54,978 bases of DNA, from the IMG/VR virus record IMGVR_UViG_3300044627_004059, positions 1 through 54,978 of that record; one strand, given 5' to 3'. Source of the stretch: a virus. Its lineage: Duplodnaviria; Caudoviricetes. The position numbers and the translations under genes are program-made. Positions 6,943 through 33,628 of this stretch are shown here, piece after piece. A model generated the notes under the pieces. The model did not search any database and was not told where the DNA came from. It saw only the letters and a list, made by a program, of their open reading frames with translations. The first letter of the stretch is position 1. Each line of letters opens with the position of its first letter.

Positions 6943-8799
6943 ATGGAGATTTCAAACAAAATTTTGAGTGAAATTACGGTGTATATGAAATATGCCAAGT
7001 ATGTTCCCGAACTCAATCGAAGAGAAACTTGGGAAGAATTAGTTACGAGAAACAAGCAAATGCACATTAAAAAATATCCGCAATTAACTGCAGAAATTGA
7101 AAATGCGTATCAGTTTGTATACAACAAAAAAGTCTTACCTTCAATGCGTAGTTTACAATTCGGAGGAAAACCAATTGAAATCTCCCCTAACCGAATTTAT
7201 AACTGTGCATATTTGCCAATTGACGATTATCGTGCATTTGGTGAAGCAATGTTCTTGTTATTAGGTGGTACTGGAGTAGGATATTCAGTACAAACACATC
7301 ACGTAGAAAAATTACCAGAAATACGTAAACCAAATCCAAAGAAAACTAGAAGATTCCTTATTGCAGATTCAATTGAAGGATGGGCAGATGCAGTAAAAGC
7401 ACTAGTTAAATCTTATTTTGAAGGCGGATCAACATTTACGTTTGATTTTTCGGATATTCGTGCTAAAGGTGCAAGATTGGTTACGTCAGGAGGAAAAGCT
7501 CCAGGTCCACAACCTTTAAAAGAATGTTTGATTAAATTAGCTGGTATTTTAGATGCAAAATCTGAAGGCGATAAATTAACGGCAATCGAAGTGCACGATA
7601 TGGTATGTCACGTTGCCGATGCTGTATTGGCAGGTGGTATTCGCAGAGCGGCTCTTATATCTTTGTTTTCGGCAGATGATGAAGAAATGATTGCGTGTAA
7701 ATCAGGCAATTGGTGGGAAACTAATCCACAACGAGGACGTGCTAATAATTCAGCAACTTTGATGCGACATAAACTCACTAAAGATTTTTTTATGGATCTT
7801 TGGAAACGAGTAGAATTATCAGGAGCAGGAGAACCAGGAATTTATCTTACAAATGATAAAGATTGGGGAACGAATCCATGTTGCGAAATTGCACTACGTC
7901 CATTCCAATTTTGTAACCTTTGTGAAGTAAATGCATCAGATATCGAATCGCAAGAAGATTTAGAAGCACGAGTGAAAGCTGCCGCATTTATCGGAACACT
8001 TCAAGCAGGTTACACTGATTTTCATTATCTACGTCCGGTATGGAAACGTACCACAGAAAAAGACGCACTTATCGGAGTATCAATGACAGGTATTGGATCT
8101 GGAACGGTATTGGGATATGATATGAAAGCTGCGGCTAAAACGGTTAAAGAAGAAAATGAACGAGTAGCAAATATCATTGGCATTAACAAATCAGCACGTA
8201 CTACGACAGTAAAACCGGCAGGAACTACATCATTAGCTTTAGGAACAAGTTCTGGAATACACGCATGGCACAATGATTATTATATTCGCAGAATACGAGT
8301 AGGAAAAAATGAAGCAATTTATTCTTATTTAGCAATCAATCATCCAGAACTAATTGAAGATGAATATTTCCGTCCACACGATACGGCTGTAATTTCTATT
8401 CCACAAAAAGCACCGGAAGGAGCTATCATGAGAACAGAATCTCCATTCCAATTATTGGATCGTATTAAAAAGGTTCATTTAGAATGGGTTAAACCAGGAC
8501 ACAGAAGCGGAAACAATACTCACAATGTATCTGCAACAGTTTCACTTAAAGCAGATGAATGGGAATTGGCTGGAGAATGGATGTGGACTAACAGAGACCA
8601 CTACAACGGATTGTCAGTTTTACCATATGATGGCGGTACATACACTCAAGCACCATTTGAAGATTGTAGCAAAGAAACATATGAAAACATGATGAAGTCT
8701 CTTCATAATATTGATTTGAGTCAAGTAATTGAATTAGATGATAACACCGATCTGTCAGGCGAATTAGCGTGTGCGGGTGGTGCGTGTGAGATTAAATAA
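6943..8799 (+). CDS. nrdJ: Class II (adenosylcobalamin-dependent) ribonucleotide reductase, RTPR-type
   Basis: NCAY, GTGVG, GGIRRAA, TNPCCEI, VKPAGT and C-terminal ACAGGACEIK redox pair; no beta-subunit gene adjacent. Confidence 0.9.
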   Translation: MEISNKILSEITVYMKYAKYVPELNRRETWEELVTRNKQMHIKKYPQLTAEIENAYQFVYNKKVLPSMRSLQFGGKPIEISPNRIYNCAYLPIDDYRAFGEAMFLLLGGTGVGYSVQTHHVEKLPEIRKPNPKKTRRFLIADSIEGWADAVKALVKSYFEGGSTFTFDFSDIRAKGARLVTSGGKAPGPQPLKECLIKLAGILDAKSEGDKLTAIEVHDMVCHVADAVLAGGIRRAALISLFSADDEEMIACKSGNWWETNPQRGRANNSATLMRHKLTKDFFMDLWKRVELSGAGEPGIYLTNDKDWGTNPCCEIALRPFQFCNLCEVNASDIESQEDLEARVKAAAFIGTLQAGYTDFHYLRPVWKRTTEKDALIGVSMTGIGSGTVLGYDMKAAAKTVKEENERVANIIGINKSARTTTVKPAGTTSLALGTSSGIHAWHNDYYIRRIRVGKNEAIYSYLAINHPELIEDEYFRPHDTAVISIPQKAPEGAIMRTESPFQLLDRIKKVHLEWVKPGHRSGNNTHNVSATVSLKADEWELAGEWMWTNRDHYNGLSVLPYDGGTYTQAPFEDCSKETYENMMKSLHNIDLSQVIELDDNTDLSGELACAGGACEIK

Positions 8800-9014
8800 T
8801 GATACAACCAGCAACAAAAGATTGGATACAACAATTATTCGTGAAGGAGTTTGGCAACAAGCTCCTTCCGAGTGATTTCTATTACGAAAATGGCAATCGA
8901 GTAATGACCGAATCATATCATGAAAGACGAGGTTCTTGTTGCGGTAACGGATGCCGGCATTGTCCATATGAACCCCGTCATGAAAAAGGTGTAAAAACTT
9001 TGAAAATTCAATAA
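8799..9014 (+). CDS. Small Cys-rich protein (DUF5522-like)
   Basis: YHERRGSCCGNGCRHCPY signature. Confidence 0.75.
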   Translation: MIQPATKDWIQQLFVKEFGNKLLPSDFYYENGNRVMTESYHERRGSCCGNGCRHCPYEPRHEKGVKTLKIQ

Positions 9015-9045: not shown

Positions 9046-9750
9046 ATGACAAAAAAACAAAGAAAAAATTTAGAGTTAGTACATCCTGGTTTTGCTAACG
9101 GCGTTTCGATTCAATTAGCAACGAAGCAGACATTAGAAGGTCCAGATGCAACATTAACTGCAGAAGAAAAGCAAGATATTATTGATAAAGCTGCATATCA
9201 TTACGGGTTATTCTTAACAGCATTAGGCGTAAATTGGGAATCGGATCCTAATTCTTCAGATACTCCGCGTCGAGTAGCAAAAGCATATGTAAATGATTTA
9301 TGGGCTGGACGTTATAATCCAATGTCTGGTATTACTGCGTTTCCTAGTGACGGATATGATGGCATCGTATTTGAAGGAGGTATTCCTTTGACATCGATGT
9401 GTAGTCATCATCACCAGACAATTATGGGTACGGTGCATGTTGCATATATTCCAGGAGATAATAGCAATGTTATCGGATTAAGCAAATTGAATCGAGTAGT
9501 AGAACATTTTGGAAGACGCGGTGCTATTCAAGAACAATTGACAGTAGCAATTCATCACGCAATTGACGAACTTATCGAAAACAATAAAGGTGTAGCAGTA
9601 ATGATTGAAGCTACTCATAATTGTGTACAATGTAGAGGCGTTAAGCACGGCGGAGCTTCAATGAAAACGGCAAAATTATCCGGAGCATTTATGTCTGAAC
9701 CTTCTACTAGAAATGAGTTTTATGAATTCATCAAAGGTTATGGCGGATAA
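9046..9750 (+). CDS. folE: GTP cyclohydrolase I
   Basis: TPRRVAK, SMCSHH, GLSKLNRVV, IQEQLT, HNCVQCRGVK. Confidence 0.95.
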   Translation: MTKKQRKNLELVHPGFANGVSIQLATKQTLEGPDATLTAEEKQDIIDKAAYHYGLFLTALGVNWESDPNSSDTPRRVAKAYVNDLWAGRYNPMSGITAFPSDGYDGIVFEGGIPLTSMCSHHHQTIMGTVHVAYIPGDNSNVIGLSKLNRVVEHFGRRGAIQEQLTVAIHHAIDELIENNKGVAVMIEATHNCVQCRGVKHGGASMKTAKLSGAFMSEPSTRNEFYEFIKGYGG

Positions 9751-10672
9751 AACAGTTTGCATAGTTGGATTAGGTATTGGTAAATTATACGTTTCGGCGT
9801 GTAAATATTACAATTGGGATGTAATTACTGTAGATCAAAACAAAGCATTGAACGCAGATTACTTAAATGTAGACGATATTCCAAAAGACGTTCATATTGA
9901 TTTAGCTGTTATATGTACTCCCAATTATACGCACGAACGAGTAGCACGGCAATTAGGTTCGAGATATGTAACCAATATTGTAGTAGAAAAACCTGGATTT
10001 CAACACGCCGGATCTTGGTTAGGATTTCAACAACAATATCCTAAGTCTCGGTTATGGATGGTTAAAAACAATCAATTTAGAACTTTATTTGCGGATTTGC
10101 AAGGCAAAGAAATTGAAAAGATACAATTGTTTTGGTTGAATAAAAATAGAATTCCAGGAGCAGGAAGCTGGTTTACAGATAAGTATAAATCGTATAGTGG
10201 AGTATCTAGAGACTTAATGCCGCACTTGTTAAGTGTAGCACAAAGAACTTTAGGACACCGCATTGCGACAGAAGAGTTTACGGCACAATGTTATCGACAA
10301 TATGATATGTCGCAACTACAAAATGATTCTACATATGGTAATTATGATGCAAACGGAATCTATGATGTAGACGATTGTGCGTATTTTAAAAGCAAAACAA
10401 ACAACGTCGATATTGAATGTTTTGCTAGTTGGAAATTAGATATCGATGTAGACATCGTAGAATGGAGATTCTTTATTAAAGGAGGTTCTAATTTAACATA
10501 TGGCGTTGGATTATGTCCAGAATCTGCATATGAAACCATGTTACACGAATATATGTATGCAGATGAAGCTACATATCAACAACATCAAAAATATGATGTG
10601 GAAATACATTCAATTATTGATCACTTTGTTGAATCGGAACAAGTTCCATTATTTGCTAAACTATCTATATGA
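9740..10672 (+). CDS. Gfo/Idh/MocA-family NAD(P)-dependent oxidoreductase
   Basis: IVGLGIG Rossmann motif, ICTPNYTH, VEKP, DLMPHL. Start placed at ATG 9740, overlapping the folE end. Confidence 0.85.
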   Translation: MADKTVCIVGLGIGKLYVSACKYYNWDVITVDQNKALNADYLNVDDIPKDVHIDLAVICTPNYTHERVARQLGSRYVTNIVVEKPGFQHAGSWLGFQQQYPKSRLWMVKNNQFRTLFADLQGKEIEKIQLFWLNKNRIPGAGSWFTDKYKSYSGVSRDLMPHLLSVAQRTLGHRIATEEFTAQCYRQYDMSQLQNDSTYGNYDANGIYDVDDCAYFKSKTNNVDIECFASWKLDIDVDIVEWRFFIKGGSNLTYGVGLCPESAYETMLHEYMYADEATYQQHQKYDVEIHSIIDHFVESEQVPLFAKLSI

Positions 10673-11565
10673 AAACACGAATATTGCATAGCTACGGAAA
10701 TCGAGAAATCGAAGAATATGATTTTGTTTTAGGCGAAATGTCTGCAAATCAAATGTTAATCGAATCCGTATATACCGGCATTTGTAGAAGTGACATAGAT
10801 CAATATACGGGAAAAATTGCAATACCGTTTGGCCATTTCGGACATGAATCTTTAGGACGAGTAGTTAAGGTTGGAAAAAACATAAAAGAATTCCACGTAG
10901 GAGACTTAGTTGCATCGCGATGCGATCCGGCATTTTCTAAATGGTTTTATGCAGATGAAGAAAATACAGTACATGTAGATTCTATTTCACCTAACAATAT
11001 CATTGAACCAATTGCATGTTCCGTTAACATAGCATTGCAAGTACTTAAAACGAAATCTAAAAAACAAAGAATTTTATTTGTAGGCACCGGATTTGTTTCT
11101 AACATTACCGCACAATACATAAAACAAGTAGCCCCGAATTTAGACGTTTACGTAATTGGTAGTCACAACAAAGAACAATGGAATCGTTTAGGTGCCAAAT
11201 TTGTTACGTTTGATGAAATAGATTTTAAGTTTAAAACGATTGTAGAATTAAGCGGTAAATCTGAAAATTACGAAAAAGTATTATCAGTAGCCGATGCGGA
11301 AGCTGTGATATGTTTAGCAGCATCCATGGATAAACCAGTTACTACCAATTTTTGGAATTCATTATGGCAAAATCATACATACATATTTCCATCTCCTAGA
11401 ACGTCAGATTTTAAACGAAGTATGCGTATTGCAGCTAATACCGAGTTTGATTTAGATTGGGTATGGACTCACGAATATGATGCTAAAGACTTTAAACGAG
11501 CTTTTGCAGAAACTGAAACGAGAACCGGAGAAGGTCCATTTATACGTAGTTATTTAAAATGGTAA
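10669..11565 (+). CDS. Medium-chain (zinc-type) alcohol/polyol dehydrogenase
   Basis: GICRSD, GHESLGRVVKVG, GDLV, EPIAC, VGTGFV. Confidence 0.85.
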   Translation: MKTRILHSYGNREIEEYDFVLGEMSANQMLIESVYTGICRSDIDQYTGKIAIPFGHFGHESLGRVVKVGKNIKEFHVGDLVASRCDPAFSKWFYADEENTVHVDSISPNNIIEPIACSVNIALQVLKTKSKKQRILFVGTGFVSNITAQYIKQVAPNLDVYVIGSHNKEQWNRLGAKFVTFDEIDFKFKTIVELSGKSENYEKVLSVADAEAVICLAASMDKPVTTNFWNSLWQNHTYIFPSPRTSDFKRSMRIAANTEFDLDWVWTHEYDAKDFKRAFAETETRTGEGPFIRSYLKW

Positions 11566-11566
11566 C

Positions 11567-11595
11567 TTGGAATTTTTTAATTATTTCTTTATATT
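11567..11595 (+). promoter_or_regulatory. Class 1 promoter-like motif (TTG-N20-TATATT) upstream of the hypothetical-queD-queE block
   Basis: Recurrent motif. Confidence 0.62.
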
Positions 11596-11606
11596 AAAAT
11601 AAAACG

Positions 11607-12026
11607 ATGTTTGGAGAAAAATACTTTTATGGCAAAGAAGTAGAAGGTCCGTTAGCGGATGTTGATACTTGCTTTGTTCGCACCGAAATTCCCGGTAATT
11701 TTAAAGCATATCCCCACGTATACATGTGTATTAGTTATGTTGATATACTGATAAAGGAAGCGGATTGGAATAAAATAAACGACATCTTAGACACCAAAGC
11801 GATAGTTACATTAGAAATAACTCCGGAGCAATACAAAAAGATTCCTCCTACGATATTTAATCGTTGCAAAGTAATGTTATCATTAGATTGTCCAGAATTA
11901 GAATTTTTAAAGCAAAATGACATTGTAAAGATAGTTACAAGACCTTTTACTACTTACAATGTAACGAAATGCAATATGCAAACGTCGACAGCAGATGATT
12001 ATAAATTTGATACTAAACAAGGATAA
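11607..12026 (+). CDS. Hypothetical protein in the deazaguanine gene block
   Basis: 139-aa ORF (FYGKEVEG...) with its own upstream promoter-like motif; no family recognised. Confidence 0.6.
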   Translation: MFGEKYFYGKEVEGPLADVDTCFVRTEIPGNFKAYPHVYMCISYVDILIKEADWNKINDILDTKAIVTLEITPEQYKKIPPTIFNRCKVMLSLDCPELEFLKQNDIVKIVTRPFTTYNVTKCNMQTSTADDYKFDTKQG

Positions 12027-12029
12027 TAT

Positions 12030-12170
12030 ATGGCTAAAAAAACAATTACATTTTGCACTGGAGTAGGATTGAACATGTTCTTTCCGGAATATGTTACAAT
12101 TGAAGTTCCTATTAAAACAGATACAGAAATTAAAAAACCTAAAAAATCAAAGAAAAATGGCAATATTTAA
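12030..12170 (+). CDS. Small hypothetical protein (46 aa, not in the ORF track)
   Basis: MAKKTITFCTGVGLNMFFPEYVTIEVPIKTDTEIKKPKKSKKNGNI fills the gap exactly, follows AAGGA and overlaps the queD start. Confidence 0.55.
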   Translation: MAKKTITFCTGVGLNMFFPEYVTIEVPIKTDTEIKKPKKSKKNGNI

Positions 12171-12621
12171 ATCAACAAAATTATTTGATGGATACTCAAC
12201 GTGTTTCCGTCAATGGCGAGCAGATGGTACGCATTGTCAGTATCTTCACGGATATGCTGTATCGTTTAGAGTATGGTTTGAAGGAGAATTAGATCATAGA
12301 AATTGGGTATGGGATTTTGGTGGTATGAAACGAGCAAAAACTAAAATACTTGGAATGTCTCCAAAAGACTATTTTGCTTGGTTGCTAGATCATACAACAG
12401 TTGTAGCTAGCGATGACCCATACTTGGAGAATTTTCATCAAATGAATGACAATGGTATCATACAATTACGCATACTTCCAGCAACGGGATGTGAAAAATT
12501 TGCAGAGCATTTGTACAAAATAATCAACAAATTTTTAAAAGAAGAAACCGAAGGCAGAGTTAGAGCTATTAAAGTAGAAGTATACGAACACGAAAGAAAT
12601 TCGGCAAGTTATGAAGAGTAA
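12157..12621 (+). CDS. queD: 6-carboxy-5,6,7,8-tetrahydropterin synthase (QueD/PTPS family)
   Basis: RQWRA...HCQYLHGY, WVWDFGG, LDHT, GCEKFA, EHERNSA. Start moved to ATG 12157. Confidence 0.85.
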   Translation: MAIFKSTKLFDGYSTCFRQWRADGTHCQYLHGYAVSFRVWFEGELDHRNWVWDFGGMKRAKTKILGMSPKDYFAWLLDHTTVVASDDPYLENFHQMNDNGIIQLRILPATGCEKFAEHLYKIINKFLKEETEGRVRAIKVEVYEHERNSASYEE

Positions 12622-12955
12622 TGAACAATACATGTCCTTATATGATTATCGAGGTATATCATCGCGAGAAACCGGATTAGGTCAAAAAGTCTATGAATCT
12701 GCTAAGAAAAAAGATGTTCATGTTATATACACCGATTTACCTCAGGAACGAGCAACGACAGAATATAATCGAGTAGCTACATATCCTAAATCGTTTTTAG
12801 ATGAATATTTTGGTAAAACTATTAATACTAATATGTCTATAAACGATGTATATTTACAACTAGTTGAATTGAAGAACCAGTTTGATCAATTAATTTCTAA
12901 TTTAGAATCCGATGCTGCCGATAACGTTGAGCAAGATGATGACTTACCATTTTAA
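12611..12955 (+). CDS. Hypothetical protein with coiled coil and SSB-like acidic tail (DDDLPF)
   Basis: 114-aa ORF; C-terminus EQDDDLPF. Confidence 0.6.
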   Translation: MKSNEQYMSLYDYRGISSRETGLGQKVYESAKKKDVHVIYTDLPQERATTEYNRVATYPKSFLDEYFGKTINTNMSINDVYLQLVELKNQFDQLISNLESDAADNVEQDDDLPF

Positions 12956-12962
12956 GGAATTT

Positions 12963-13739
12963 ATGAAACCAGGAAGAATTACAGACTACAACAAAGTCTT
13001 ACCAATTGTTGAATTATATAGATGTGTACAGAGTGAAGGTTCTCGCTTCGGAAGACCTACAATTGCGGTAAGAACTACCGGATGCACTCATCGATGCTAC
13101 TTTGGAGAAGGAGGATGGTGCGACTCTTGGTATACAAGCATTCATCCGGAAAAAGGAACATTTACATTTAATGATATTGTAGATATTTATAATAAAAATC
13201 CACATATCAAAGAAATGATGTTAACGGGAGGTTCTCCTACAATGCATCCCGCTTTGGTTAATGAGTTGACGCATTTTGCACATGAAAGAGGCATTCTTAT
13301 TACTATTGAAACTGAAGGTTCGCATTTTATTGAGACTGATTATCCTATTGGGGTTATCTCTCTTAGCCCTAAGTTTAGCAATAGCGTTCCCGTTGTGGGC
13401 ATTTCTACGCCACAAGGCACGATTACGGATGAAAAAATGGTTACGCAACATAATAAATTTAGGTTGAACTATGACGCAATTGAAAAAATGATTGCATATC
13501 ATGCAGATTATCATTATAAACCAGTATGGGATGGTTCTTTAGAAAATTTACATGAAATTGAAGAATTTCGAGTAAAGTTAAATATTCCAAAAGATAAAAC
13601 ATATGTAATGCCGGCGGGAGATACAAGAGAAGAATTAATTAAAATGTATCCGTTAGTATTTGAAATGTGCGCACAATTTGGATATAACATGACAGGACGA
13701 GATCATATCATTGCATTTGATACTAAACGAGGAGTATAA
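12963..13739 (+). CDS. queE: 7-carboxy-7-deazaguanine synthase (radical SAM)
   Basis: CVQSEG, RTTGCTHRC...WCDS, LTGGSP, IETEG, SLSPK. Start moved to ATG 12963 after AAGGA. Confidence 0.9.
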   Translation: MKPGRITDYNKVLPIVELYRCVQSEGSRFGRPTIAVRTTGCTHRCYFGEGGWCDSWYTSIHPEKGTFTFNDIVDIYNKNPHIKEMMLTGGSPTMHPALVNELTHFAHERGILITIETEGSHFIETDYPIGVISLSPKFSNSVPVVGISTPQGTITDEKMVTQHNKFRLNYDAIEKMIAYHADYHYKPVWDGSLENLHEIEEFRVKLNIPKDKTYVMPAGDTREELIKMYPLVFEMCAQFGYNMTGRDHIIAFDTKRGV

Positions 13740-13797
13740 TGAATTGGACAACGACAACGACATTTGGCAATTACGAAATTAAATACATTATAACAAA

Positions 13798-14046
13798 ATG
13801 AAACAAGTACTTTATTTTTCAGCAGAATGGTGCGGACCATGCAAAATGATAAAACCGCAAATGCAACAATTACAGTCTCAAATGACAATTACATTTATCG
13901 ATGCTGATACTAGTCCAGATACGTGTAGCAAATACAACGTAAGAAATGTTCCTACATTGTTGGTAATTAAAAATGGTATGGAAGCAGGTCGATTAGTAGG
14001 CACTGCAATAACCAAAGATGCAGTAATAAATTTGTATAATAAATAA
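13798..14046 (+). CDS. trxA: Thioredoxin
   Basis: WCGPC active site and VPT cis-Pro motif. Confidence 0.92.
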   Translation: MKQVLYFSAEWCGPCKMIKPQMQQLQSQMTITFIDADTSPDTCSKYNVRNVPTLLVIKNGMEAGRLVGTAITKDAVINLYNK

Positions 14047-14058
14047 AAGGAATAAGTT

Positions 14059-14358
14059 ATGAATTGGAAACCAATTGGAGATCAAGTACTCCTTAAAGAA
14101 CTAGAAAAACAAGAAAAAACTAAAAGTGGTATCATCATGATGGCAGGTATGGATGAATACATTGAATGCGATGTGATGGCAGTAGGCGATGGGTTGTTTA
14201 CTCAAACTGGTAATAAAATACCAATGACAGTAAAAGTAGGAGACCGAGTAAAAATCTATTCCGGAAATTTAGGTTCGCAAAAGAAAGTACAATTAGAGTC
14301 CGACGAATTTGTTTTAGTTCGTGAACATGAAATTGCAATGATAAATACGCGTCCATGA
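14059..14358 (+). CDS. groES: Co-chaperonin GroES
   Basis: KPIGDQVL, KTKSGII, VMAVGDG, VKVGDRV, VREHEI. Confidence 0.9.
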   Translation: MNWKPIGDQVLLKELEKQEKTKSGIIMMAGMDEYIECDVMAVGDGLFTQTGNKIPMTVKVGDRVKIYSGNLGSQKKVQLESDEFVLVREHEIAMINTRP

Positions 14359-14591
14359 TTGAGACGTTAGGATGGGTCTGTACGGCATTGGTATTGATTG
14401 GTTTCATTGTCAATGCCAACGGACGTTTTCTTCCAGCATTAATTTGGTGGATTGTAGGCGATATTGGTTGGATTATATATGATATTTACATACATAATAT
14501 TAGCCATATGGTTTTAGGATTAGTTATAATAGCAATAAATAGTTACGGTATCATACGATACTATAAAAATAAACGATGTATCAAGCAATAA
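14355..14591 (+). CDS. Small membrane protein (about 3 TM helices)
   Basis: Hydrophobic 78-aa ORF overlapping both neighbours. Confidence 0.6.
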   Translation: MIETLGWVCTALVLIGFIVNANGRFLPALIWWIVGDIGWIIYDIYIHNISHMVLGLVIIAINSYGIIRYYKNKRCIKQ

Positions 14592-17080
14592 ATTACGATA
14601 AAAAAACAGGCACGATGCACGTCTGGGATGATGAAATTGGGCATCAAAAGTTTGCATTTAAACCATATGCATTTTTACCAGACGATAACGGTCAATATCA
14701 ATCATTAGATGGAACTAAACTCTCTAAAGTTTCAGGAAATCATAAAGACAATTCAAAAGCATTTGAATCGGATTTAAATGAAGAAGTTCGAACGCTTATT
14801 GATTTGTATTACGATTCAGATTTAGTTTCAAAAGGACATCGCGATTTCTTTTTTGATATTGAAACGGAACGAGATGAAAACGGATATTCTACTGCTGAAG
14901 AAGCACGTGCACGTATAACATCGATTGCATATTTCGATAAAGCCGGTAAAAGAAAAGGCGTATTGCTATTAGACGAAGAACGCAGACTTACACAAAAAAT
15001 ATCAGTTGATAATGTAGAAGTATTTGACAATGAGTCGAACATGTTAACTCGATTTATTAATTTATTTGCAGAAATACAACCTACCGTTATAACGGGATGG
15101 AATACGGATAATTACGATATTCCGTACATGGTTAATCGCATTAAAAAATTATTAGGATCTGGTGCTGTTAAAAAACTATCTCCTGCAGGTATTGTAGAAT
15201 GGAATAAACATCGAGAACGATACAAAATATTTGGAGTATCTAGTTTAGATTATTTAACATTATACAAGAAATTTACATATACAGAACTTGCAAATTATCG
15301 TTTAGATACGGTTGCTAAAAAAGAATTGGGTCGAGGTAAAGTTGAATACGAAGGAGATTTAAATTATTTGTTTGCAACTGACATTGAAAAATTCGTAGAA
15401 TATAACATGACCGACGTTGATTTGGTTTATGAATTAGACGAAAAGTTACAAATGCTTAATCTTGCAAGAACTATATGCCATAAAGGACACGTTCCGTATG
15501 AAGATGTATATTATGCATCTAAATACTTGGATGGTGCTGCTATTGTAGATTTAAAACGTAAAGGATTGGTTGCTCCACCTAAAGCATTTAGATTTGTTGA
15601 AGATGAATCAATCGAAGATTTAGCAGGTGCATATGTAATGGCTCCCGTTCCTGGATTGTATAAATGGATATATGACTTAGATTTAACTTCTCTGTATCCA
15701 AGCATCATCATGACATTAAATATATCTCCGGAAACTAAAGTAGGAGTAATAGAAAAATGGAATCAAGAAGTATTGTTAAAGCCAGAACCGCAACAAGTTA
15801 AATTTACAGATGGAACGTTTGTACAAAACGTTAAACAATGGTTAACCGATAATAAATATACAGTAGCTAGTAACGGTACAGTGTATCGAACCGATATTAA
15901 AGGATTTTTACCGGCAATATTAGAAACATGGTTTGATGAACGCGTTACATATAAAAATAAACGCGATGAATATGAAGTTGGTTCTGAAGATTATAAATTT
16001 TACGATGCATTACAAAATACACAAAAAGTATTGCTTAATTCATTTTATGGAGTATTAGGATTAAAAACGTTTCGTTTTCACGATTTAGATAACGCAGGTG
16101 CTATTACGGCAACTGGACAAAATGTTATTAAATTTTCACAACGAGTAATCAATTCGTATTATACTAAAGAAATTGGTAAGTCGCATTTTATTAATGCAAC
16201 CGGAGGACAAGCAGAATTTGCATTTTATACAGATACAGATTCCGCATTTATTTCGGCTCTTCCTTTGATACAACATAGATATCCGAATTGCGATGAATCC
16301 GATGAAAAGTTCATGGTAGATAAAACCAATGAAATTGCATCCGAAATACAACGTCATGTAAATCGTATGTATGATCAATATGCTTTGGCATTTCATAACA
16401 CCGCAACACATCGTTGGCAAATTAAACAAGAATATGTTGCAAAATCTGGTTTATGGATTGCCAAGAAACGATATGCACAATGGGTAATTTACAAAGAAGG
16501 AAAACCTACGGATAAATTAGATATAAAAGGTTTAGATGTAGTTCGTTCATCATTTCCAGAAGATTTCAAAATGATAATGAAAGAAACACTTTGGCATATT
16601 CTTAAAGAAAAAGATAAAACAGAAACATCGAATATGATTCATGCATTTAAAAAACAAATACAATCTTCCGATGTATTAAATGTAATGAAAAACTCCGGAG
16701 TAAAAGAAATATCAAAATTCATAAAAGGACGAAAGCCATTCACCGGATATCTTAAAGGAACTCCCGCACATGTTAAGGCTGCAATTAATTTTAACGATTT
16801 CTTGCATATGTACGAAGTTAAAGATGTAACTGCTATACAAAATGGAGAAAAGGTGAAATGGGCATATTTAGCAGATAATCCATATGGAATGGATACGATG
16901 GCACTTCGAGGATATCAAGATCCTAAACCTATCATAGAATTTGTAGAACAATACATAGACAGAAATAAAATCTTTGAAAAAGAATTGAAAAATAAATTGG
17001 ATGATTTTTATGCGGCTATGAATTGGGGCGCATTTCCAGAAAATAATTCAGTTGCAAAGTTTTTTAGTTTTGGAAAATAA
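14576..17080 (+). CDS. Family B DNA polymerase (T4 gp43-like)
   Basis: Exo I FDIET, Exo II GWNTDNYDIPY, DLTSLYPSI, KVLLNSFYG, YTDTDS, KKRY. Confidence 0.96.
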   Translation: MYQAINYDKKTGTMHVWDDEIGHQKFAFKPYAFLPDDNGQYQSLDGTKLSKVSGNHKDNSKAFESDLNEEVRTLIDLYYDSDLVSKGHRDFFFDIETERDENGYSTAEEARARITSIAYFDKAGKRKGVLLLDEERRLTQKISVDNVEVFDNESNMLTRFINLFAEIQPTVITGWNTDNYDIPYMVNRIKKLLGSGAVKKLSPAGIVEWNKHRERYKIFGVSSLDYLTLYKKFTYTELANYRLDTVAKKELGRGKVEYEGDLNYLFATDIEKFVEYNMTDVDLVYELDEKLQMLNLARTICHKGHVPYEDVYYASKYLDGAAIVDLKRKGLVAPPKAFRFVEDESIEDLAGAYVMAPVPGLYKWIYDLDLTSLYPSIIMTLNISPETKVGVIEKWNQEVLLKPEPQQVKFTDGTFVQNVKQWLTDNKYTVASNGTVYRTDIKGFLPAILETWFDERVTYKNKRDEYEVGSEDYKFYDALQNTQKVLLNSFYGVLGLKTFRFHDLDNAGAITATGQNVIKFSQRVINSYYTKEIGKSHFINATGGQAEFAFYTDTDSAFISALPLIQHRYPNCDESDEKFMVDKTNEIASEIQRHVNRMYDQYALAFHNTATHRWQIKQEYVAKSGLWIAKKRYAQWVIYKEGKPTDKLDIKGLDVVRSSFPEDFKMIMKETLWHILKEKDKTETSNMIHAFKKQIQSSDVLNVMKNSGVKEISKFIKGRKPFTGYLKGTPAHVKAAINFNDFLHMYEVKDVTAIQNGEKVKWAYLADNPYGMDTMALRGYQDPKPIIEFVEQYIDRNKIFEKELKNKLDDFYAAMNWGAFPENNSVAKFFSFGK

Positions 17081-17098
17081 GATTTATTTTCTTATATT
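17070..17098 (+). promoter_or_regulatory. Class 1 promoter-like motif (TTG-N20-TATATT) upstream of the cytidylyltransferase-dpdL-GT-dpdA block
   Basis: Recurrent motif; ATG lies 5 nt downstream. Confidence 0.62.
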
Positions 17099-17103
17099 AT
17101 AGT

Positions 17104-17517
17104 ATGAAACAAGGAGTTATAGCTGGCAATTTTGATGTAATACATCCGGGTTATATTAAAATGTTTAAAGAATGTAAAGAAAATTGCGACGATCTTGTAG
17201 TATTATTACATACCGATCCGACAATAGAACGACCGGAAAAATGTAAACCTATTTTATCCGTTGAAGAACGGCAAGAAATGTTATTTGAATTAGGTATTTC
17301 GGCAGTTATTCCATACACATATGAAAATGAATTATATGAATTACTTAAACATGGAAATTACGATGTTAGATTCTTAGGAGACGATTATATAGGAAAGTCG
17401 TTTACAGGGGATGATTTAGATATTCCAATACATTACTTAAATAGAGACCACGGTTGGTCTACAACTAAATTTAAAAAGTTAATAGCAGATGAAGTACAGC
17501 GTAGTAGTAACATTTAG
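17104..17517 (+). CDS. Cytidylyltransferase-family nucleotidyltransferase (TagD / RfaE domain II-like)
   Basis: GNFDVIHPGY (HxGH-like), KPILSVEER, LGDDY, RDHGWSTT. Confidence 0.85.
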   Translation: MKQGVIAGNFDVIHPGYIKMFKECKENCDDLVVLLHTDPTIERPEKCKPILSVEERQEMLFELGISAVIPYTYENELYELLKHGNYDVRFLGDDYIGKSFTGDDLDIPIHYLNRDHGWSTTKFKKLIADEVQRSSNI

Positions 17518-17839
17518 TATCGAAGGGTTTCATTGTTGGCCAGATGCCAAAGATGTATTTCCAGAAGTAGCATTTTTATCATACAGGCATCGGCATATGT
17601 TTGGATTTCGATGTTATGCATCCGTAACACATACAGATCGCGATGAGGAATTTATCTTGTTGAATCGCAAAATACAAAAAGCATTGCGAATTGGGTTTAC
17701 ATCTCCAATAACTAATGTATTAGAATTTGATTCAATGTCATGTGAAATGATCGGAGAATGGTTGTTAAATGAATTTCCTGCATTATACAAAGTTGAAGTT
17801 TGGGAAGATTGGGAAAATGGAGCAATTGTAGAAAAATGA
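17489..17839 (+). CDS. QueD-paralogous T-fold protein, probable CDG decarboxylase (DpdL-like)
   Basis: FHCWP...LSYRHRHMF matches the LxxxHRHxF motif I recall for DpdL; also DRDEEFI, SCEMI, EDWENGA. Lies two genes upstream of the TGT-fold gene. Confidence 0.7.
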   Translation: MKYSVVVTFSIEGFHCWPDAKDVFPEVAFLSYRHRHMFGFRCYASVTHTDRDEEFILLNRKIQKALRIGFTSPITNVLEFDSMSCEMIGEWLLNEFPALYKVEVWEDWENGAIVEK

Positions 17840-18864
17840 AAATATTTTTAGTAGACATAGAATCGGTACCGACTCGTTATACTTGCGAATGGAAAACTCA
17901 TGTACCACAATTGCTTCGCAATAACGGATTTGATGTTGTAGTTGTAGAAGGAGATAATTCAATTCCGGAAGCAACAACTCCAGGAGCCTTTTTAAACTTT
18001 GGCGGTACTAATATGTATAAAGCAACGCAAGTACATCAATTATCGGAAATGTTTACCAAAGGCGAAATTGAAGCAGGCGATCATATTATTTTTACAGATG
18101 CTTGGCATCCAGGCATTATCAATGTAAAATACATGAGTGAACTCCTAAATATTCCCGTTGTACTGCATGGACTTTGGCACGCGGGTTCATATGACCCGTA
18201 TGACTTTTTAGGGCGTCTCGTGGGAAGTAAACCATGGATTCGCCATGCTGAAACATCGATGATGGAATGTTATAACTACAATTGGATAGCAACTCGAGCA
18301 CATTATGACTTAATCGATAAAACGTATGATGTTATATTTGATACGAGATGGCATAGAACCGGTTGGCCAATGGAATATACAAAAGATTTAATTGCACCGA
18401 AACTTTGGACTCTTAAAGAAAACATTATAGTATTTCCACACCGAATTGCTCCAGAGAAGCGTTTAGATTTATTTCAAAGATTAGCAAAGCATCCAGATTT
18501 GCAACATTATCAATTTTGTGTTGCTATGGAAATGAATTTAAACAAACAAGAATATCATGAATTGCTTCAGCGAGCTAAATTTGCAGTATCATTTGCAGAT
18601 CAAGAAACATTGGGAATATCAATGTATGAGTCAGCGTGTGCAGGAGCATGTCCCATAGTTCCTAATCGGTTATCATATACGGAAATGTATGATCCGATGT
18701 TTAAGAGAGCTGACAGCGTTGCTAGTGCAGCAAATGCAATATTAGAATACGAAGACCAAGCAATGGATCAACCAATAGCACAATTGGTCGAAACATTACA
18801 TGAAAACTTTTTTTCAGCAACACAATTAATTAATAAACTAAAGGAATACGATGAGCGAAGCTAA
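17836..18864 (+). CDS. GT-B fold (GT4-like) glycosyltransferase
   Basis: FPHRIAPEKR and QETLGISMYES (Ex7E) signature. Start moved to ATG 17836 (ATGA overlap with the upstream stop). Confidence 0.85.
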   Translation: MKIFLVDIESVPTRYTCEWKTHVPQLLRNNGFDVVVVEGDNSIPEATTPGAFLNFGGTNMYKATQVHQLSEMFTKGEIEAGDHIIFTDAWHPGIINVKYMSELLNIPVVLHGLWHAGSYDPYDFLGRLVGSKPWIRHAETSMMECYNYNWIATRAHYDLIDKTYDVIFDTRWHRTGWPMEYTKDLIAPKLWTLKENIIVFPHRIAPEKRLDLFQRLAKHPDLQHYQFCVAMEMNLNKQEYHELLQRAKFAVSFADQETLGISMYESACAGACPIVPNRLSYTEMYDPMFKRADSVASAANAILEYEDQAMDQPIAQLVETLHENFFSATQLINKLKEYDERS

Positions 18865-20107
18865 AAGATTCATATACTTTCCATCTTTATCTGCAGGATC
18901 TATGGTATCTGCATTTAAGAAAGATATGAAATTTGCAAATGGAGATCCAGTTAAGTTTTTTGATTCCCGTTATCCAAAAGAATGGAGACATCCGTATTTT
19001 TTGATTACAGCGGGACATCATTACAAAAAAATGGATTTTCGAGATCAACTAGGATTAGAAAAAGATGTATTAGTATTTGGAGATTCGGGAGGATACCAAA
19101 TAGCAACTGGGGCTTTGCCTTATAGCAATGAATTACGAGAAAAGATTTTTCATTGGTTAGAAGCTAATAGCGATGTAGCAGCTAATTTAGATATTCCACC
19201 TAAAACGAAATATAGAAATAAATTTGCAGAATGTGCGGATATTAGTTTTGATAACTTTGCTTGGTTTGAAAAGCATCAAAGTGGTAAGACTAAATTCTTA
19301 AACATGTTGCAAGGATCTAACTCAGCAGAGTATGCGTGGTGGTACAATAAATTTAAGCATTTTGATTTTCAAGGATGGGCAATTGGAGGTCCGCAACGAT
19401 TAGTAGATTTTATGTTTGCTATTTCATTGCTTCTTAAAGAAAAAGAATTTGAAAATAAAAGAAACCAATACGTTCACTTATTAGGTATTAGTAAGATTTC
19501 GGATTTCTTTATTTTAGCAACATTGCAAAAATTAATGAACAAATATTATGGAAATAGAATCTATATAACTACGGATTCATCGTCTCCAGGACAATATCCG
19601 GTGTTTGGAACATATTTGCATTCTACTAATTATAAAACGCAAACATTCTCGGAATTATATTTTCCAAAGAATGCGGAATATCGAAGAAAGAATCATGTTA
19701 AACAAGGACGAGTAGGAATCGATATGGATTTGACTCAACATGTTCCGTGTAGCTTAGGATGTCCTGCTTGTAGCGATTTTACTTATGAATTGTTAGGTGG
19801 ACAAACTCCGACAGGATTAGATAGATATTCGCAAGAAGCTATGCCAAGAATGGTGGTTCATAATACGCATTTATATGTAGATGCGGCAAATGAAATCAAT
19901 CAAATGGTAGATAGTCACGTTGAATTGTTAGAAACGGTGGTACCTAAAGATTTGTATGATGTAATATTATCATTGCATGAAATGTTTGCAGATCCAGATG
20001 CAGCTCCGCATATCTACGAAAAATACATTAAAACATATAAAAAATTCGGCGGTGATAGTATATCTACTACGGATGCTGAAAACTTTAATAAATTCTTTAA
20101 ATTTTAA
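18851..20107 (+). CDS. dpdA: tRNA-guanine transglycosylase-fold protein, probable DNA-guanine transglycosylase DpdA
   Basis: DSGGYQ, LDIP, QG, AIGG, HLLG, DSSS and Zn site CSLGCPAC...HN. Context of folE/queD/queE and replisome genes favours a DNA substrate (inference). Confidence 0.78.
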   Translation: MSEAKRFIYFPSLSAGSMVSAFKKDMKFANGDPVKFFDSRYPKEWRHPYFLITAGHHYKKMDFRDQLGLEKDVLVFGDSGGYQIATGALPYSNELREKIFHWLEANSDVAANLDIPPKTKYRNKFAECADISFDNFAWFEKHQSGKTKFLNMLQGSNSAEYAWWYNKFKHFDFQGWAIGGPQRLVDFMFAISLLLKEKEFENKRNQYVHLLGISKISDFFILATLQKLMNKYYGNRIYITTDSSSPGQYPVFGTYLHSTNYKTQTFSELYFPKNAEYRRKNHVKQGRVGIDMDLTQHVPCSLGCPACSDFTYELLGGQTPTGLDRYSQEAMPRMVVHNTHLYVDAANEINQMVDSHVELLETVVPKDLYDVILSLHEMFADPDAAPHIYEKYIKTYKKFGGDSISTTDAENFNKFFKF

Positions 20108-20118: not shown

Positions 20119-20829
20119 ATGGAAAAAAGTAAATTACAATCATTAATCAATCGTTATTATTTAGCAGGTAATTGTGAAGCTGTTAAATTGAAAGAAAATG
20201 CAGAAGGAATTAATTGCGAATTGATTGATATGGATCAAACGGTTGTAGGAAAAATACAATGGAAAACAACTCCGTTCATGAAAGGTGAATTAGGAATCAA
20301 TCATACCGGAGCATTAATTAAAATGTTGTCTGCATTAGGCGAAAACATAGAAATTGATGTAAAAGATGCAGCAGGTAAAAATTATGCAATGAAAATTAGC
20401 GAAGGTAAAACAGAAGCGACGTTCATGTTAGCAGATACAACGGTTATTCCTGCAGTTCCATCAATCAATGCAGAACCTGCATATCAAATTGAAATTCCAG
20501 TTAATGAAGAATTTATAACTAGATTTATCAAAGCAAAAAATGCGTTACCTGATGCAAAGAATTTTGCAGTACAAGTAAAAAGCGGAACAATTCGTTTTAT
20601 TATTAATTATAGCACGGTTAATGCGGATAATATTACATTTGAAGTAGGATCAACAACAGCAGCTGATATGGAACCTGTTTGTTTCTCTGCAGATAAATTG
20701 AAAGAAGTACTTGTAGCAAACAGAGGTGATTCTGGTAAGCTTCACGTATCTCCAGATGGGTTAGCTCGTATTGAATTTACTGGAGCTGATTTTGATTCGG
20801 CATATTGGTTAGTAATGTTGCAAAATTAA
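20119..20829 (+). CDS. DNA polymerase sliding clamp (gp45/PCNA-like)
   Basis: 236 aa, two-domain beta-rich pattern ending GLARIEF...YWLV; close to clamp-loader genes. Confidence 0.75.
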   Translation: MEKSKLQSLINRYYLAGNCEAVKLKENAEGINCELIDMDQTVVGKIQWKTTPFMKGELGINHTGALIKMLSALGENIEIDVKDAAGKNYAMKISEGKTEATFMLADTTVIPAVPSINAEPAYQIEIPVNEEFITRFIKAKNALPDAKNFAVQVKSGTIRFIINYSTVNADNITFEVGSTTAADMEPVCFSADKLKEVLVANRGDSGKLHVSPDGLARIEFTGADFDSAYWLVMLQN

Positions 20830-24296: not shown

Positions 24297-24515
24297 ATGA
24301 TTGAATTTAAACATAAACACACATACGTATATAAGTTTGAACTACAAAAACGTAGTCCGTTTGTAGGGTGGGAACAATGTGAATATGTTTTATTAACTGA
24401 TATTAGCGATCCCAATCACAAAGAAAATCGAAAACTATTAGAAACTGGATTGCGCCTTGCATATAATAATCACGTTCCAAAAGGTGTTAGATTTTCATAC
24501 GAGAAAACCAAATGA
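24297..24515 (+). CDS. Hypothetical protein
   Basis: 72-aa ORF with an upstream TATAAT-like element. Confidence 0.55.
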   Translation: MIEFKHKHTYVYKFELQKRSPFVGWEQCEYVLLTDISDPNHKENRKLLETGLRLAYNNHVPKGVRFSYEKTK

Positions 24516-24916
24516 CAAAAGTAGCAGTTATAGGAAATACGGGTTGGCAAAATAAACGCAAAGTACAAGAAACGTTGCAAATGTTAAAACGTAAATTTCC
24601 GGAAGATTTAATTATTATCGGTGCTGGAGGCAATGAAGGTGCTAATAGCATGGTTCGCAAATATGCATTAGAATTCGGAATGGATTATCATGAATATAAT
24701 CCTTCATTTTCTGGATATAATTTATATTCAGCAATGCCAGAATCATATTACGGCAAAGCATATCATTTTAGTCAACTTCATCATCGCATGAAACTAATTG
24801 CACAACATTGTGATTACATGATGATTATGACAAATGAAGATGCATTAGATCCTGTGTTAAAAACAGCATATACCAATGTTAACAAGTTAAAAAAGCCAGT
24901 AGTTATACTAGGCTGA
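24512..24916 (+). CDS. SLOG-superfamily (YspA/DUF2493-like) protein
   Basis: KVAVIG...IIGAGG.EGA...YA...KKPV pattern. Confidence 0.6.
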   Translation: MTKVAVIGNTGWQNKRKVQETLQMLKRKFPEDLIIIGAGGNEGANSMVRKYALEFGMDYHEYNPSFSGYNLYSAMPESYYGKAYHFSQLHHRMKLIAQHCDYMMIMTNEDALDPVLKTAYTNVNKLKKPVVILG

Positions 24917-24924
24917 TATTTATA
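24916..24924 (+). promoter_or_regulatory. Class 2 motif ATATTTATA (putative late promoter) heading the glycosyltransferase island
   Basis: The same core occurs at 659, 2323, 6854, 41477, 44922, 46971 and 51479, each shortly upstream of a gene start. Confidence 0.5.
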
Positions 24925-24946
24925 ATAAAGTTATAAGGAATAATAA

Positions 24947-26434
24947 ATGGAGTTACCAAAGTTACAAAAAATCGATCCAAACAAGCCTAAGAAAAAGAAA
25001 ATTTTATTGTTATCTGATGATTTTCGCCTCCCGTCGGGTATTGGTACAATTAGCAAAGAAATTATCTACAATACGGTTAAAGAATTTGACTGGGTGCAAT
25101 TGGGTGCAGCAATTAATCATCCCGATGCGGGAAAAGCATTTGATTTATCTCAAGAAGTATCAAAAGAAACGGGAGTTCATGATGTTTCGGTAAAATTGAT
25201 TCCGTGGAACGGATATGGCGATAGAAACATTTTATTCGCAATATTGAATCAAGAACAACCAGATGCGATTCTTCATTTTACAGATCCAAGATATTGGGTT
25301 TGGTTATATCAATTAGAACATGAAATAAAAACTACGTTCCGAGTTCCAATTACGTATTATTCAATTTGGGATGATTTACCATATCCAATGTGGAACGCTC
25401 CTTTTTACGGTAGTTGTGATATGATCATGGGCATTAGTAAGCAATCCGATAATATCCACAGAGAAGTACTTAAACAGAACGGATTTGGCGTTGTAGATTA
25501 CGATAACGGAGTAGTTTCAAAAAATTTAAAATGGAATCAGGTAGTTACCGGATTCGTACCGCACGGATTAAATCATAACACGTTTAAACCTATACCAAAA
25601 GACGATTCTGTATATCAAACAATGCATGATAAAATTAAAACTGCGAATGGAGTTGATTTTGTAGTATTTTGGAATAACAGAAACATCAGAAGAAAACAAC
25701 CAGGAGATTTAATTATTGCATTCAAGCATTTTGTAGATCAACTTCCTGCAGAAAAACAAAGTAGCGTAGCATTACTAATGCATACCCAAGCAATTGACGA
25801 AAATGGAACGGATTTACGTGCGGTAGCAAAAACATTGGCACCTAATTGTAAAATATTGTTTTCGGAACAAAAATTAAATGCACAAGATTTAAATGCAATG
25901 TACAACGTTGCTGATGTTGTAGTAAATATTGGTAGCAACGAAGGTTGGGGACTTAGTTCAACCGAAGCAATGCTAACCGGTACTCCAATCATTAACAACG
26001 TAACTGGAGGATTGCAAGATCAATGCGGGTTTACGGATGAAAATGGCGAATGGATTCGTTTCAATGGCGAATTTTCAACTAATCATAACGGTAAATACAC
26101 AAAACATGGTAAATGGGCATATCCAGTATTTCCTAGCAACAGATCGCTTCAAGGATCGCCACAAACTCCGTATATTTTTGATGATAGAGTGCGGTTTGAA
26201 GATGTATCTAAAGCAATCATGTATTGGTATAGCATTGTTGAAGATCAACGCACCGAATATGGTTTAGCAGGTAGAGAATTTTGTTTGAATAACGGATTAA
26301 CTGCAGAATCGATGGGTAATAAAATGATTGAAATGTTTAATTATTTATTCAATACCAATAAACAATCTAGAGCATTATACACCGTAACAAAAGTAGAACA
26401 ACCAAAATACGAACAAACAGGAATAGTAGCATAA
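24947..26434 (+). CDS. GT4-like glycosyltransferase
   Basis: SGIG, PHG, NNRNIRRKQ, NEGWGLSSTEA, TGGLQD. Confidence 0.88.
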   Translation: MELPKLQKIDPNKPKKKKILLLSDDFRLPSGIGTISKEIIYNTVKEFDWVQLGAAINHPDAGKAFDLSQEVSKETGVHDVSVKLIPWNGYGDRNILFAILNQEQPDAILHFTDPRYWVWLYQLEHEIKTTFRVPITYYSIWDDLPYPMWNAPFYGSCDMIMGISKQSDNIHREVLKQNGFGVVDYDNGVVSKNLKWNQVVTGFVPHGLNHNTFKPIPKDDSVYQTMHDKIKTANGVDFVVFWNNRNIRRKQPGDLIIAFKHFVDQLPAEKQSSVALLMHTQAIDENGTDLRAVAKTLAPNCKILFSEQKLNAQDLNAMYNVADVVVNIGSNEGWGLSSTEAMLTGTPIINNVTGGLQDQCGFTDENGEWIRFNGEFSTNHNGKYTKHGKWAYPVFPSNRSLQGSPQTPYIFDDRVRFEDVSKAIMYWYSIVEDQRTEYGLAGREFCLNNGLTAESMGNKMIEMFNYLFNTNKQSRALYTVTKVEQPKYEQTGIVA

Positions 26435-30489: not shown

Positions 30490-30499
30490 TAAAAATAAT

Positions 30500-32016: not shown

Positions 32017-32017
32017 T

Positions 32018-32046
32018 TTGGTTAACTGTAAAAAAATGATTATATT
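32018..32046 (+). promoter_or_regulatory. Class 1 promoter-like motif (TTG-N20-TATATT) upstream of the NDP-sugar tailoring genes
   Basis: Recurrent motif; ATG lies 6 nt downstream. Confidence 0.62.
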
Positions 32047-32052
32047 CATAAT

Positions 32053-33625: not shown

Positions 33626-33628
33626 CTT

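Follow-up and report, generated by a model that had tools for sequence, protein, structure and literature searches.

A DpdL-type 7-deazaguanine locus with a putative glycosylation branch in a virus of the Caudoviricetes

Introduction

In Cellulophaga phage phiST, every guanine of the DNA is replaced by the deoxynucleoside of 7-deazaguanine (dDG), and the genes described for this pathway encode FolE, QueD, QueE, DpdL and DpdA3 (Cui et al. 2023, PMC10516641). Here we describe a related locus at positions 9046 to 20107 of the IMG/VR record IMGVR_UViG_3300044627_004059 (Duplodnaviria; Caudoviricetes), the entire 54,978 bases of which were analyzed and are referred to as the window (completeness rating, about 32% of the genome). 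In this locus, genes of the phiST type are interleaved with genes for a glycosyltransferase (GT), a Gfo/Idh/MocA oxidoreductase (Gfo), an MDR dehydrogenase and a protein of 139 amino acids (aa), designated u139. With moderate confidence, the locus is interpreted as a QueC-independent DpdL/DpdA3 deazaguanine pathway with a glycosylation branch, whose product would be a glycosylated 7-deazaguanine, probably built as the free base, tailored in its sugar and then swapped into DNA. The central chemical claim, a sugar on deazaguanine in DNA, is one that we infer from gene linkage.

To our knowledge, every DNA base that bears a sugar is a pyrimidine: glucosyl- and arabinosyl-hydroxymethylcytosine, base J and sugar derivatives of thymidine reported recently. 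With a glycosylated deazapurine, natural DNA would gain a new chemical class. In agreement with the earlier note on this DNA, which knew of no description of such a base, full-text searches outside subscription-only papers returned no paper on a glycosylated deazaguanine in DNA. The proposal, if true, would also account for an experiment in E. coli, in which dpdL and dpdA of phiST or of phage ACP17, without a GT gene, are reported to have given no dDG, with the comment that other enzymes may be required (PMC10516641). It would likewise put a name to the modified G of the jumbo phage PA5oct, whose DNA resists five restriction enzymes according to a 2025 preprint that infers a modified G and leaves the base unnamed (PMC12191111). 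The module is present in phages already in culture, among them PA5oct, Sinorhizobium phage Phosso and Synechococcus phage BUCT-ZZ01, and the prediction is directly testable.

Deazaguanine core of the locus

All genes of the window lie on the plus strand. The core starts with FolE, the GTP cyclohydrolase I that converts GTP to dihydroneopterin triphosphate (9046..9750; PF01227, 9e-45; phrog_2197, 2.3e-61), and continues with QueD, the T-fold CPH4 synthase (12091..12621; PTPS, 1.5e-14; phrog_2389, 4e-36), and QueE, the radical-SAM synthase of 7-carboxy-7-deazaguanine (CDG) (12912..13739; phrog_2076, 9.5e-49; TIGR03365, 4.9e-15). The formation of CDG from GTP by FolE, QueD and QueE is established chemistry of these families. 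A second, QueD-like T-fold protein of 116 aa (17489..17839; phrog_17812, 9.6e-25) carries the motif LSYRHRHMF at residues 30 to 38, and the pattern LxxxHRHxF is invariant in an alignment of 16 homologues together with H15, H34-R35-H36, H48, E54 and S84-C85-E86, which comprise the zinc histidines and the SCE motif. LxxxHRHxF in place of the QueD motif CxxxHGH is the signature given for DpdL (PMC10516641), the proposed CDG decarboxylase, and the second T-fold protein is identified as DpdL accordingly.

No QueC, QueF or ArcS family member was found in Pfam scans of the 74 plus-strand open reading frames (ORFs) of at least 70 aa, six-frame searches of the window detected neither QueC nor QueF, and Gat-QueC was likewise missing from the Pfam scans and the six-frame QueC search. 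Gene absence from the window alone proves little, because the window is only about 32% of the genome. QueC was also not found in any of five related records; their completeness ratings include 100% for two and 86% for one that resembles the window. With FolE, QueD, QueE, the DpdL motif, a DpdA-family transglycosylase and neither QueC, QueF, ArcS nor Gat-QueC, the locus is classified by its sequences as a DpdL-type system. The gene content described in the earlier note, comprising FolE, QueD, QueE, a second T-fold protein, a protein resembling tRNA-guanine transglycosylase (TGT), four extra enzymes and the 139-aa protein without QueC, QueF or ArcS, was confirmed in full, in overlapping plus-strand runs.

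Both the window and phiST carry FolE, QueD, QueE, DpdL with LxxxHRHxF and a transglycosylase of the DpdA family beside replication genes, without QueC, and the identities are 66% for FolE, 56% for QueD, 64% for QueE and 40% for DpdL (CGPG_00067). The phiST genes are ordered QueD-QueE-FolE-MazG-DpdL-159 aa-DpdA3, so that the gene separating DpdL from DpdA3 encodes the 159-aa protein CGPG_00066, in the position that the GT occupies in the window. In contrast to the window, phiST has no GT, Gfo or MDR, and its DpdA3 of 259 aa shows marginal similarity to the 418-aa DpdA of the window (hhalign probability, 33.6%, not significant).

Glycosyltransferase

The GT is encoded by an ORF at 17800-18864; relatives align from residue 13, and the real start is therefore probably the ATG at 17836 (17836..18864). 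The gene overlaps the stop of dpdL by 4 nucleotides (nt) and the start of dpdA by 14 nt. It was assigned to the retaining GT4 type of the GT-B fold by predicted fold and motif, because the Pfam model Glycos_transf_1 stayed below threshold (24.8 bits against a cut-off of 26.4); six distant homologues had no Pfam match and the family profile had none among the sequences of the PDB. The AlphaFold model (predicted local distance difference test [pLDDT], 87.5; predicted template modeling score [pTM], 0.85) was matched by VIA-align to the sucrose-phosphate synthase 6kih (Z 25.8, root mean square deviation of 3.4 over 319 residues), BshA (Z 25.4), MshA (Z 24.1) and the tetrahydrobiopterin glucosyltransferases BGluT (Z 21.3-22.7), the last also by Foldseek (8e-9 to 3.2e-8). 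The likeness to BshA, MshA and BGluT is one of GT4 GT-B fold (Z 21-25 over about 290-320 residues), whereas sequence identity to the GT is 11-15%, with no match at sequence level. The acceptor of the cyanobacterial BGluT is a pterin, and pterins are related to deazaguanine in their biosynthesis, which likewise passes through FolE. The T4 α- and β-glucosyltransferases were not among the 50 VIA-align entries listed nor among the Foldseek rows listed, from which no exclusion follows.

Across 15 sequences, the EX7E motif (E257-TLGISxY-E265) and HRxxxEK (H202-R203...E207-K208) are invariant; EX7E and basic residues binding the diphosphate are defining features of GT4. The N-terminal acceptor domain has invariant motifs of its own (TRYTxEWKxH, PGAFLNFxxTNxYK and LWHxGSYD), and the 15 members are acidic, with isoelectric points (pI) of 5.2-6.4. 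The GT4 fold is modeled with confidence, and the nearest solved structures (BshA, MshA, BGluT) have small-molecule acceptors.

Linkage places the GT in the module. Among 73 viral loci from IMG/VR seeded with the GT, DpdL was present in 68, DpdA in 65 and all three genes in 61, and the shortfall consists mostly of loci clipped by contig ends. In records of cultured phages with a DpdL match, 18 of 29 had the GT within about 3 kb. The family comprises 478 representatives at 50% identity (E ≤1e-30). Homologues with 37-42% identity lie within the deazaguanine genes of PA5oct (DpdA3-GT-DpdL), ACP17 (QueD-FolE-x-DpdA2-GT-DpdL-QueE) and Phosso (DpdL-GT-x-FolE...QueE), which resemble the window in that genes for the GT, DpdL and a DpdA of related sequence adjoin one another and differ from it in that no Gfo, MDR, u139 or cytidylyltransferase was found in the flanks examined. 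PA5oct and ACP17 are listed as DpdL phages in the supplementary table of Cui et al., which gives the accessions flanking the GT gene and omits the GT itself, and the string 'glycosyl' does not occur in the main text (PMC10516641). On this linkage, the GT is a core member of a DpdL-GT-DpdA module.

In a sister clade (L158-L160, L170, L171, L174, L185, L188, L193, L195, L203, L210 and L224; about 6700-7900 in L158), a different GT of 395 aa with 23-27% identity occupies the place between DpdL (72-89%) and DpdA (70-74%), which points to a replacement or a rapid divergence of the sugar transferase. Elsewhere, the gene directly 3' of the GT encodes an epimerase/dehydratase (L106, L126, L131) or a DegT aminotransferase (L090, L091, L093), and in L058 a C-methyltransferase, a cupin and an SDR enzyme follow QueE. 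These lineage-specific extras and the alternative GT suggest that the sugar varies among lineages.

In the close relatives L011, L035, L043, L046, L047, L056, L068 and L076, DpdL and the GT, overlapping in the window, are separated by an insertion of about 650 bp. In distant phages with the module (L072, L074, L052, L069, L058, L075), the GT is flanked by genes for a phosphoribosyltransferase, MazG, a HIT protein, GMP reductase/IMP dehydrogenase, an HhH-GPD glycosylase-like protein and peptide deformylase, and a 2-oxoglutarate (2OG) oxygenase gene immediately follows the GT in L052.

Transglycosylase

The gene at 18851..20107 encodes a DpdA3-type protein of 418 aa, the predicted DNA guanine transglycosylase. 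Its family profile matched the PA5oct protein QCG76197.1 with 1.8e-169, which is named DpdA3 in the supplementary table of Cui et al. (PMC10516641), and it aligned with DpdA2 of ACP17 at an hhalign probability of 94.4%. GDSGGxQ, LDIP and D-S/C-x-S-P (D242) are invariant in an alignment of 15 members. The earlier description as a TGT-fold protein holds in that the protein is a DpdA3-type relative by homology; its resemblance to TGT itself is weak. The window protein scored weakly on the TgtA (1.4e-3) and DpdA (7.7e-3) models, a homologue with 72% identity reached 27.7 bits against a cut-off of 26.3 in TGT-model matching, a six-frame TGT search of the window returned nothing and the family profile had no match among the PDB sequences.

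The C terminus ...NFNKFFKF (20077-20107) resembles the end ...VAKFFSFGK (17050-17080) of the family-B polymerase of the window, and dpdA adjoins the gene for the sliding clamp (20119-20829). The two protein ends look like a shared clamp-docking tail. This tail and the adjacency of the clamp gene would fit an action of DpdA at the replisome.

Dehydrogenase pair and 139-aa protein

The Gfo gene (9713..10672; PF01408, 4.9e-8, above cut-off) encodes an NAD(P) oxidoreductase with GxGxG (G19, G21, G23), EKPG (K93-P94) and D167xxxH171 invariant in five homologues; GxGxG, EKP and D-x3-H are the defining motifs of the Gfo/Idh/MocA family. It is overlapped by 4 nt by the gene for the MDR zinc-dependent dehydrogenase/reductase (10669..11565; ADH_N, 5.1e-12), a protein of 298 aa, shorter than typical zinc alcohol and polyol dehydrogenases of the MDR group, in which the zinc ligands C39 and H59-E60 are invariant, as are the glycines G139 and G141 in the loop that binds the nucleotide (window sequence, GTGFVS).

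Found in 9 of the 73 loci seeded with the GT, the pair is optional, but the reverse test demonstrates its specificity for the module. A viral scan seeded with Gfo gave 433 relatives, and among the best 80 of these, which were kept, MDR adjoined Gfo in 79; where at least 5 kb of downstream sequence was available, DpdL and the GT were each present in 50 of 52 loci, and where at least 3.5 kb was available upstream, DpdA was present in 65 of 70. In a large clade, the usual order is PolB...DpdA-Gfo-MDR-x-DpdL-GT...FolE, and in the smaller group of the window (L078-L086), Gfo-MDR-u139 stands between FolE and QueD.

The best solved match of the Gfo family profile was DgpA (7xr9, 1e-12), with an alignment over positions 36-242 of 300 that includes the Rossmann domain and reaches the substrate domain; the second-best solved match (2e-7) covered positions 44-171. 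DgpA, from the DgpA/B/C pathway for C-glycosides in the gut strain PUE, is described as a Gfo/Idh/MocA enzyme whose substrates are aryl C- and O-glycosides such as puerarin, the glucose of which it oxidizes at the 3''-OH (PMC11239390, PMC9939296). From this match, the phage enzyme may likewise work on a sugar that an aromatic aglycone already carries. The systems differ in that DgpA initiates catabolic deglycosylation with DgpB/C, which the window does not contain, and the phage Gfo is paired with an MDR reductase. The MDR profile matched only generic alcohol, threonine and xylitol dehydrogenases among the PDB sequences.

The u139 protein (11607..12026) has no Pfam, NCBIfam or PHROG match and no usable match in the protein atlas, and its structure model (mean pLDDT, 54.9) was too poor for structural search. 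Its alignment shows 31 invariant columns, and the residues in many of these are polar. Among the loci seeded with the cytidylyltransferase of the window, its profile matched in 23 of the 24 that carry the module and in 0 of the 56 that do not. In the group resembling the window, u139 always follows MDR, in L085 Gfo-MDR-u139-GT are contiguous, and in relatives without Gfo a paralogue of u139 (35-39% identity) lies between PolB and the cytidylyltransferase. Within this phage clade, u139 is thus specific to the module.

Cytidylyltransferase and glycan cluster

The fourth extra enzyme of the earlier note is a cytidylyltransferase-like nucleotidyltransferase (17104..17517; PF01467, 2.8e-10; phrog_7878, 5e-31). 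It reached 49.9 bits with the NCBIfam model TagD for glycerol-3-phosphate cytidylyltransferase, below the cut-off of 165.4, and its signature HPGY has a Tyr instead of the second His of HxGH, the motif of the cytidylyltransferase family. By these features, it is assigned only to the wider cytidylyl/adenylyltransferase superfamily. Among the 80 closest viral loci (68-81% identity), 24 have any gene of the module and 56 have none. In L164, the gene stands among replication genes, and in L181 it is enclosed by a glycan cluster with homology to the cluster at 26-41 kb of the window (identities of 47% for GT4b, 56% for GT2a, 56% for a 312-aa protein and 65% for GT2b). The large share of loci without the module and the contexts in L164 and L181 argue for a bystander or a part of the glycan cluster, and the enzyme, although adjoining the deazaguanine module, probably lies outside the pathway.

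The co-occurrence analysis proposed in the earlier note thus bore out its interpretation in part, as the GT, Gfo, MDR and u139 track DpdL and DpdA and the cytidylyltransferase does not. The suggestion that an activated polyol made by the cytidylyltransferase is added to the DNA base was rejected for lack of this co-occurrence. In the window, the pathway members GT, Gfo, MDR and u139 are thereby separated from a bystander.

The glycan cluster of the window extends over about 17 kb (24512-41465, plus strand). Its glycosyltransferases comprise two GT4, two GT2, a TOD1/MUCI70-like and a PLOD-type enzyme, and it further encodes a SLOG-domain protein, several methyltransferases including one sugar C-methyltransferase, two FdtA-type isomerases, a 2OG-Fe(II) oxygenase, an RmlD-like reductase, a DegT aminotransferase and an epimerase/dehydratase. 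The start of the cluster, SLOG-GT4a-GT4b-GT2a, is kept in close relatives.

Proposed pathway and alternative explanations

In the proposed pathway, FolE, QueD and QueE would convert GTP to CDG, and DpdL would act on the free base to give 7-deazaguanine, as is likely from phiST. The retaining GT4 would then transfer a sugar from a nucleoside diphosphate (NDP)-sugar donor of the host onto the deazaguanine, a step suggested by the linkage. In a subset of phages including that of the window, the DgpA-like Gfo and MDR would tailor the sugar, probably by converting one ring hydroxyl into a ketone that is then reduced, for example in an epimerization, with u139 working alongside; the dehydrogenase pair thereby gains a concrete proposed role. 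Finally, the DpdA3-type enzyme would install the finished base in DNA in place of G, probably acting within the replisome via its polymerase-like C-terminal tail, and the phage DNA is predicted to carry a sugar-bearing 7-deazaguanine and to be resistant to restriction. Glycosylation at the stage of the free base is favored because small molecules are the acceptors of the nearest folds of the GT, the two dehydrogenases are of an ordinary soluble kind, the proteins of the module are all acidic and enzymes of the TGT family are known to take bases with bulky groups at C7 such as queuine.

A more specific version appears unlikely in its entirety. In it, the base would be the first known glycosylated purine analogue in DNA, formed by the GT4 as a C-glycoside at the electron-rich C7 of free 7-deazaguanine after decarboxylation by DpdL, its sugar would be reshaped at C3 by the DgpA-like oxidoreductase and MDR, and a clamp-riding DpdA3 would insert this bulky base at the fork, with the acceptance of queuine by eukaryotic TGT as a parallel; the sugar would be varied by the epimerases, aminotransferases or alternative GT of each lineage in an arms race with modification-sensing nucleases.

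Several observations weigh against the proposed glycosylation pathway. The weakest point is the acceptor atom, which is unexplained because 7-deazaguanine has no hydroxyl; either a C- or N-glycoside is needed or the real acceptor is another intermediate, and we know of no retaining GT4 enzyme with a purine analogue as the acceptor of a C- or N-glycosidic bond. DpdL-type pathways can work without glycosylation, since phiST makes dDG and no phiST record was among the GT matches of the cultured-phage search. The GT is absent from 11 of the 29 cultured DpdL records, the phiST group included, and DpdL from 5 of 23 cultured records with a GT match (Xanthomonas and Erwinia phages; 26-28% identity). 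One of these relatives, in Xanthomonas phage PhiXhv-12 (L247, 8255-10821; profile E, 2.5e-25), has no DpdL anywhere in the genome and stands in the order GlmS, PIG-L-type deacetylase, GT and a weakly Gfo-like protein, with FolE far off, a layout that resembles a pathway of the BshA/BshB type in which GlcNAc is added and then deacetylated. The transglycosylase family matches TGT models weakly, with the Pfam TGT model matching 0 of 15 members, TgtA at E ≤0.05 matching 4 of 15 and an hhalign probability of only 11% with E. coli Tgt, which is not significant, although the invariant GDSGGxQ, LDIP and D-S/C-x-S-P align with the known Tgt motifs GG, MGVG and FDCV. The viral loci counted above are not independent and those retained are the ones nearest the query, and the large, separate glycan cluster of the window could consume the sugar enzymes.

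The sugar enzymes may act away from DNA. The DNA would then contain plain dDG as in phiST, and the GT, Gfo and MDR would act on a soluble molecule of the pathway, either by sequestering or detoxifying an excess of free deazaguanine, of CDG or of a pterin intermediate, or by forming a pterin glycoside in the manner of BGluT. We regard this as rather unlikely. With its set of FolE, QueD, QueE and DpdL, phiST makes dDG and has no GT (PMC10516641), the enzymes of the module all look soluble, acidic and of small-molecule type, and the GT has BGluT among its structural matches. BGluT is, however, no nearer than other GT4 enzymes, as sucrose-phosphate synthase, BshA and MshA have Z scores of 25.8-24.1, and in Pseudomonas, Acidovorax and Sinorhizobium phages the GT is tied to DpdA and DpdL and not to FolE alone. 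A pathway for side products would also not be expected to keep translational coupling, such as the overlaps of 4 and 14 nt with DpdL and DpdA, and dpdL and dpdA of ACP17 without the GT yielded no dDG in the experiment of Cui et al. (PMC10516641).

A different order of steps, quite improbable in our view, would follow phage T4, with DpdA inserting deazaguanine or CDG, the GT glycosylating the base in the duplex and Gfo and MDR preparing the NDP-sugar or acting on the sugar in DNA; it departs from the glycosylation pathway proposed here solely in this order. In T4, a phage GT-B enzyme adds a sugar to a modified DNA base, forming glucosyl-hydroxymethylcytosine as a protection against restriction, and the α- and β-glucosyltransferases of T4 are GT-B enzymes that act on DNA. 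There, a pyrimidine whose hydroxymethyl group is the acceptor is glucosylated in DNA, whereas the present case concerns a deazapurine and a GT4 fold nearest to small-molecule transferases. Genes for NDP-sugar-modifying enzymes after the GT in several lineages would fit donor synthesis, and the insertion of simple bases is what is described for the DpdA enzymes characterized so far (PMC10516641). Against such an order stand three weak points: the T4 enzymes are not in the 50 best structural matches (again no exclusion), the GT family is acidic and Gfo resembles an enzyme for finished glycosides and not one for NDP-sugars.

That the sugar enzymes belong to a general glycan machinery for the virion or the host surface and came to stand among the deazaguanine genes by chance is very improbable. 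This would agree with the cluster of about 17 kb, which has at least six further glycosyltransferase-like genes in addition to methyltransferases, FdtA-type isomerases, a DegT aminotransferase and epimerases, and it is the best reading for the cytidylyltransferase, given its 56 of 80 loci without the module and its position in L181. The linkage of the GT, Gfo, MDR and u139 to DpdL and DpdA, however, recurs across distant lineages in varied orders and without a glycan cluster.

Genome context and neighboring genes

The window encodes a T4-like replisome with gp32, UvsX/RecA, a DnaB-like helicase, ribonucleotide reductase, a family-B polymerase, a sliding clamp and a clamp loader. By comparison of the polymerase, the nearest cultured phage is Microcystis phage Mel-JY01 (43.6% identity). 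Two small genes accompany the deazaguanine core. Directly upstream of folE, a Cys-rich DUF5522 protein of 71 aa is encoded (8799..9014; PF17653, 7.7e-18), with homologues (72-91% identity) upstream of folE in 17 of the 73 loci seeded with the GT; its membership in the pathway is uncertain. Between QueD and QueE, a gene (12611..12955) encodes a 114-aa protein whose C-terminal tail is acidic; it has no Pfam, NCBIfam or PHROG match, and homologues (28-71% identity) occupy the same place in relatives.

The window also encodes a protein with two PAS domains (41844-42962), a SET-domain protein (47641-48042) and a ClpS-like adaptor (50052-50369), and a PAS-domain protein is encoded near DpdA in Phosso, too. 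A scan of genome contigs with the GT gave only eight loci, mostly on short contigs from metagenome bins, and these were not used as evidence. Three short contigs (L238, L239 and L241) binned with Crocinitomicaceae carry relatives of the GT, DpdL and DpdA with up to 79-88% identity, and FolE, QueD and QueE of the window are closest to their counterparts in a Cellulophaga phage. Both observations are weak hints of a host among the Bacteroidota.

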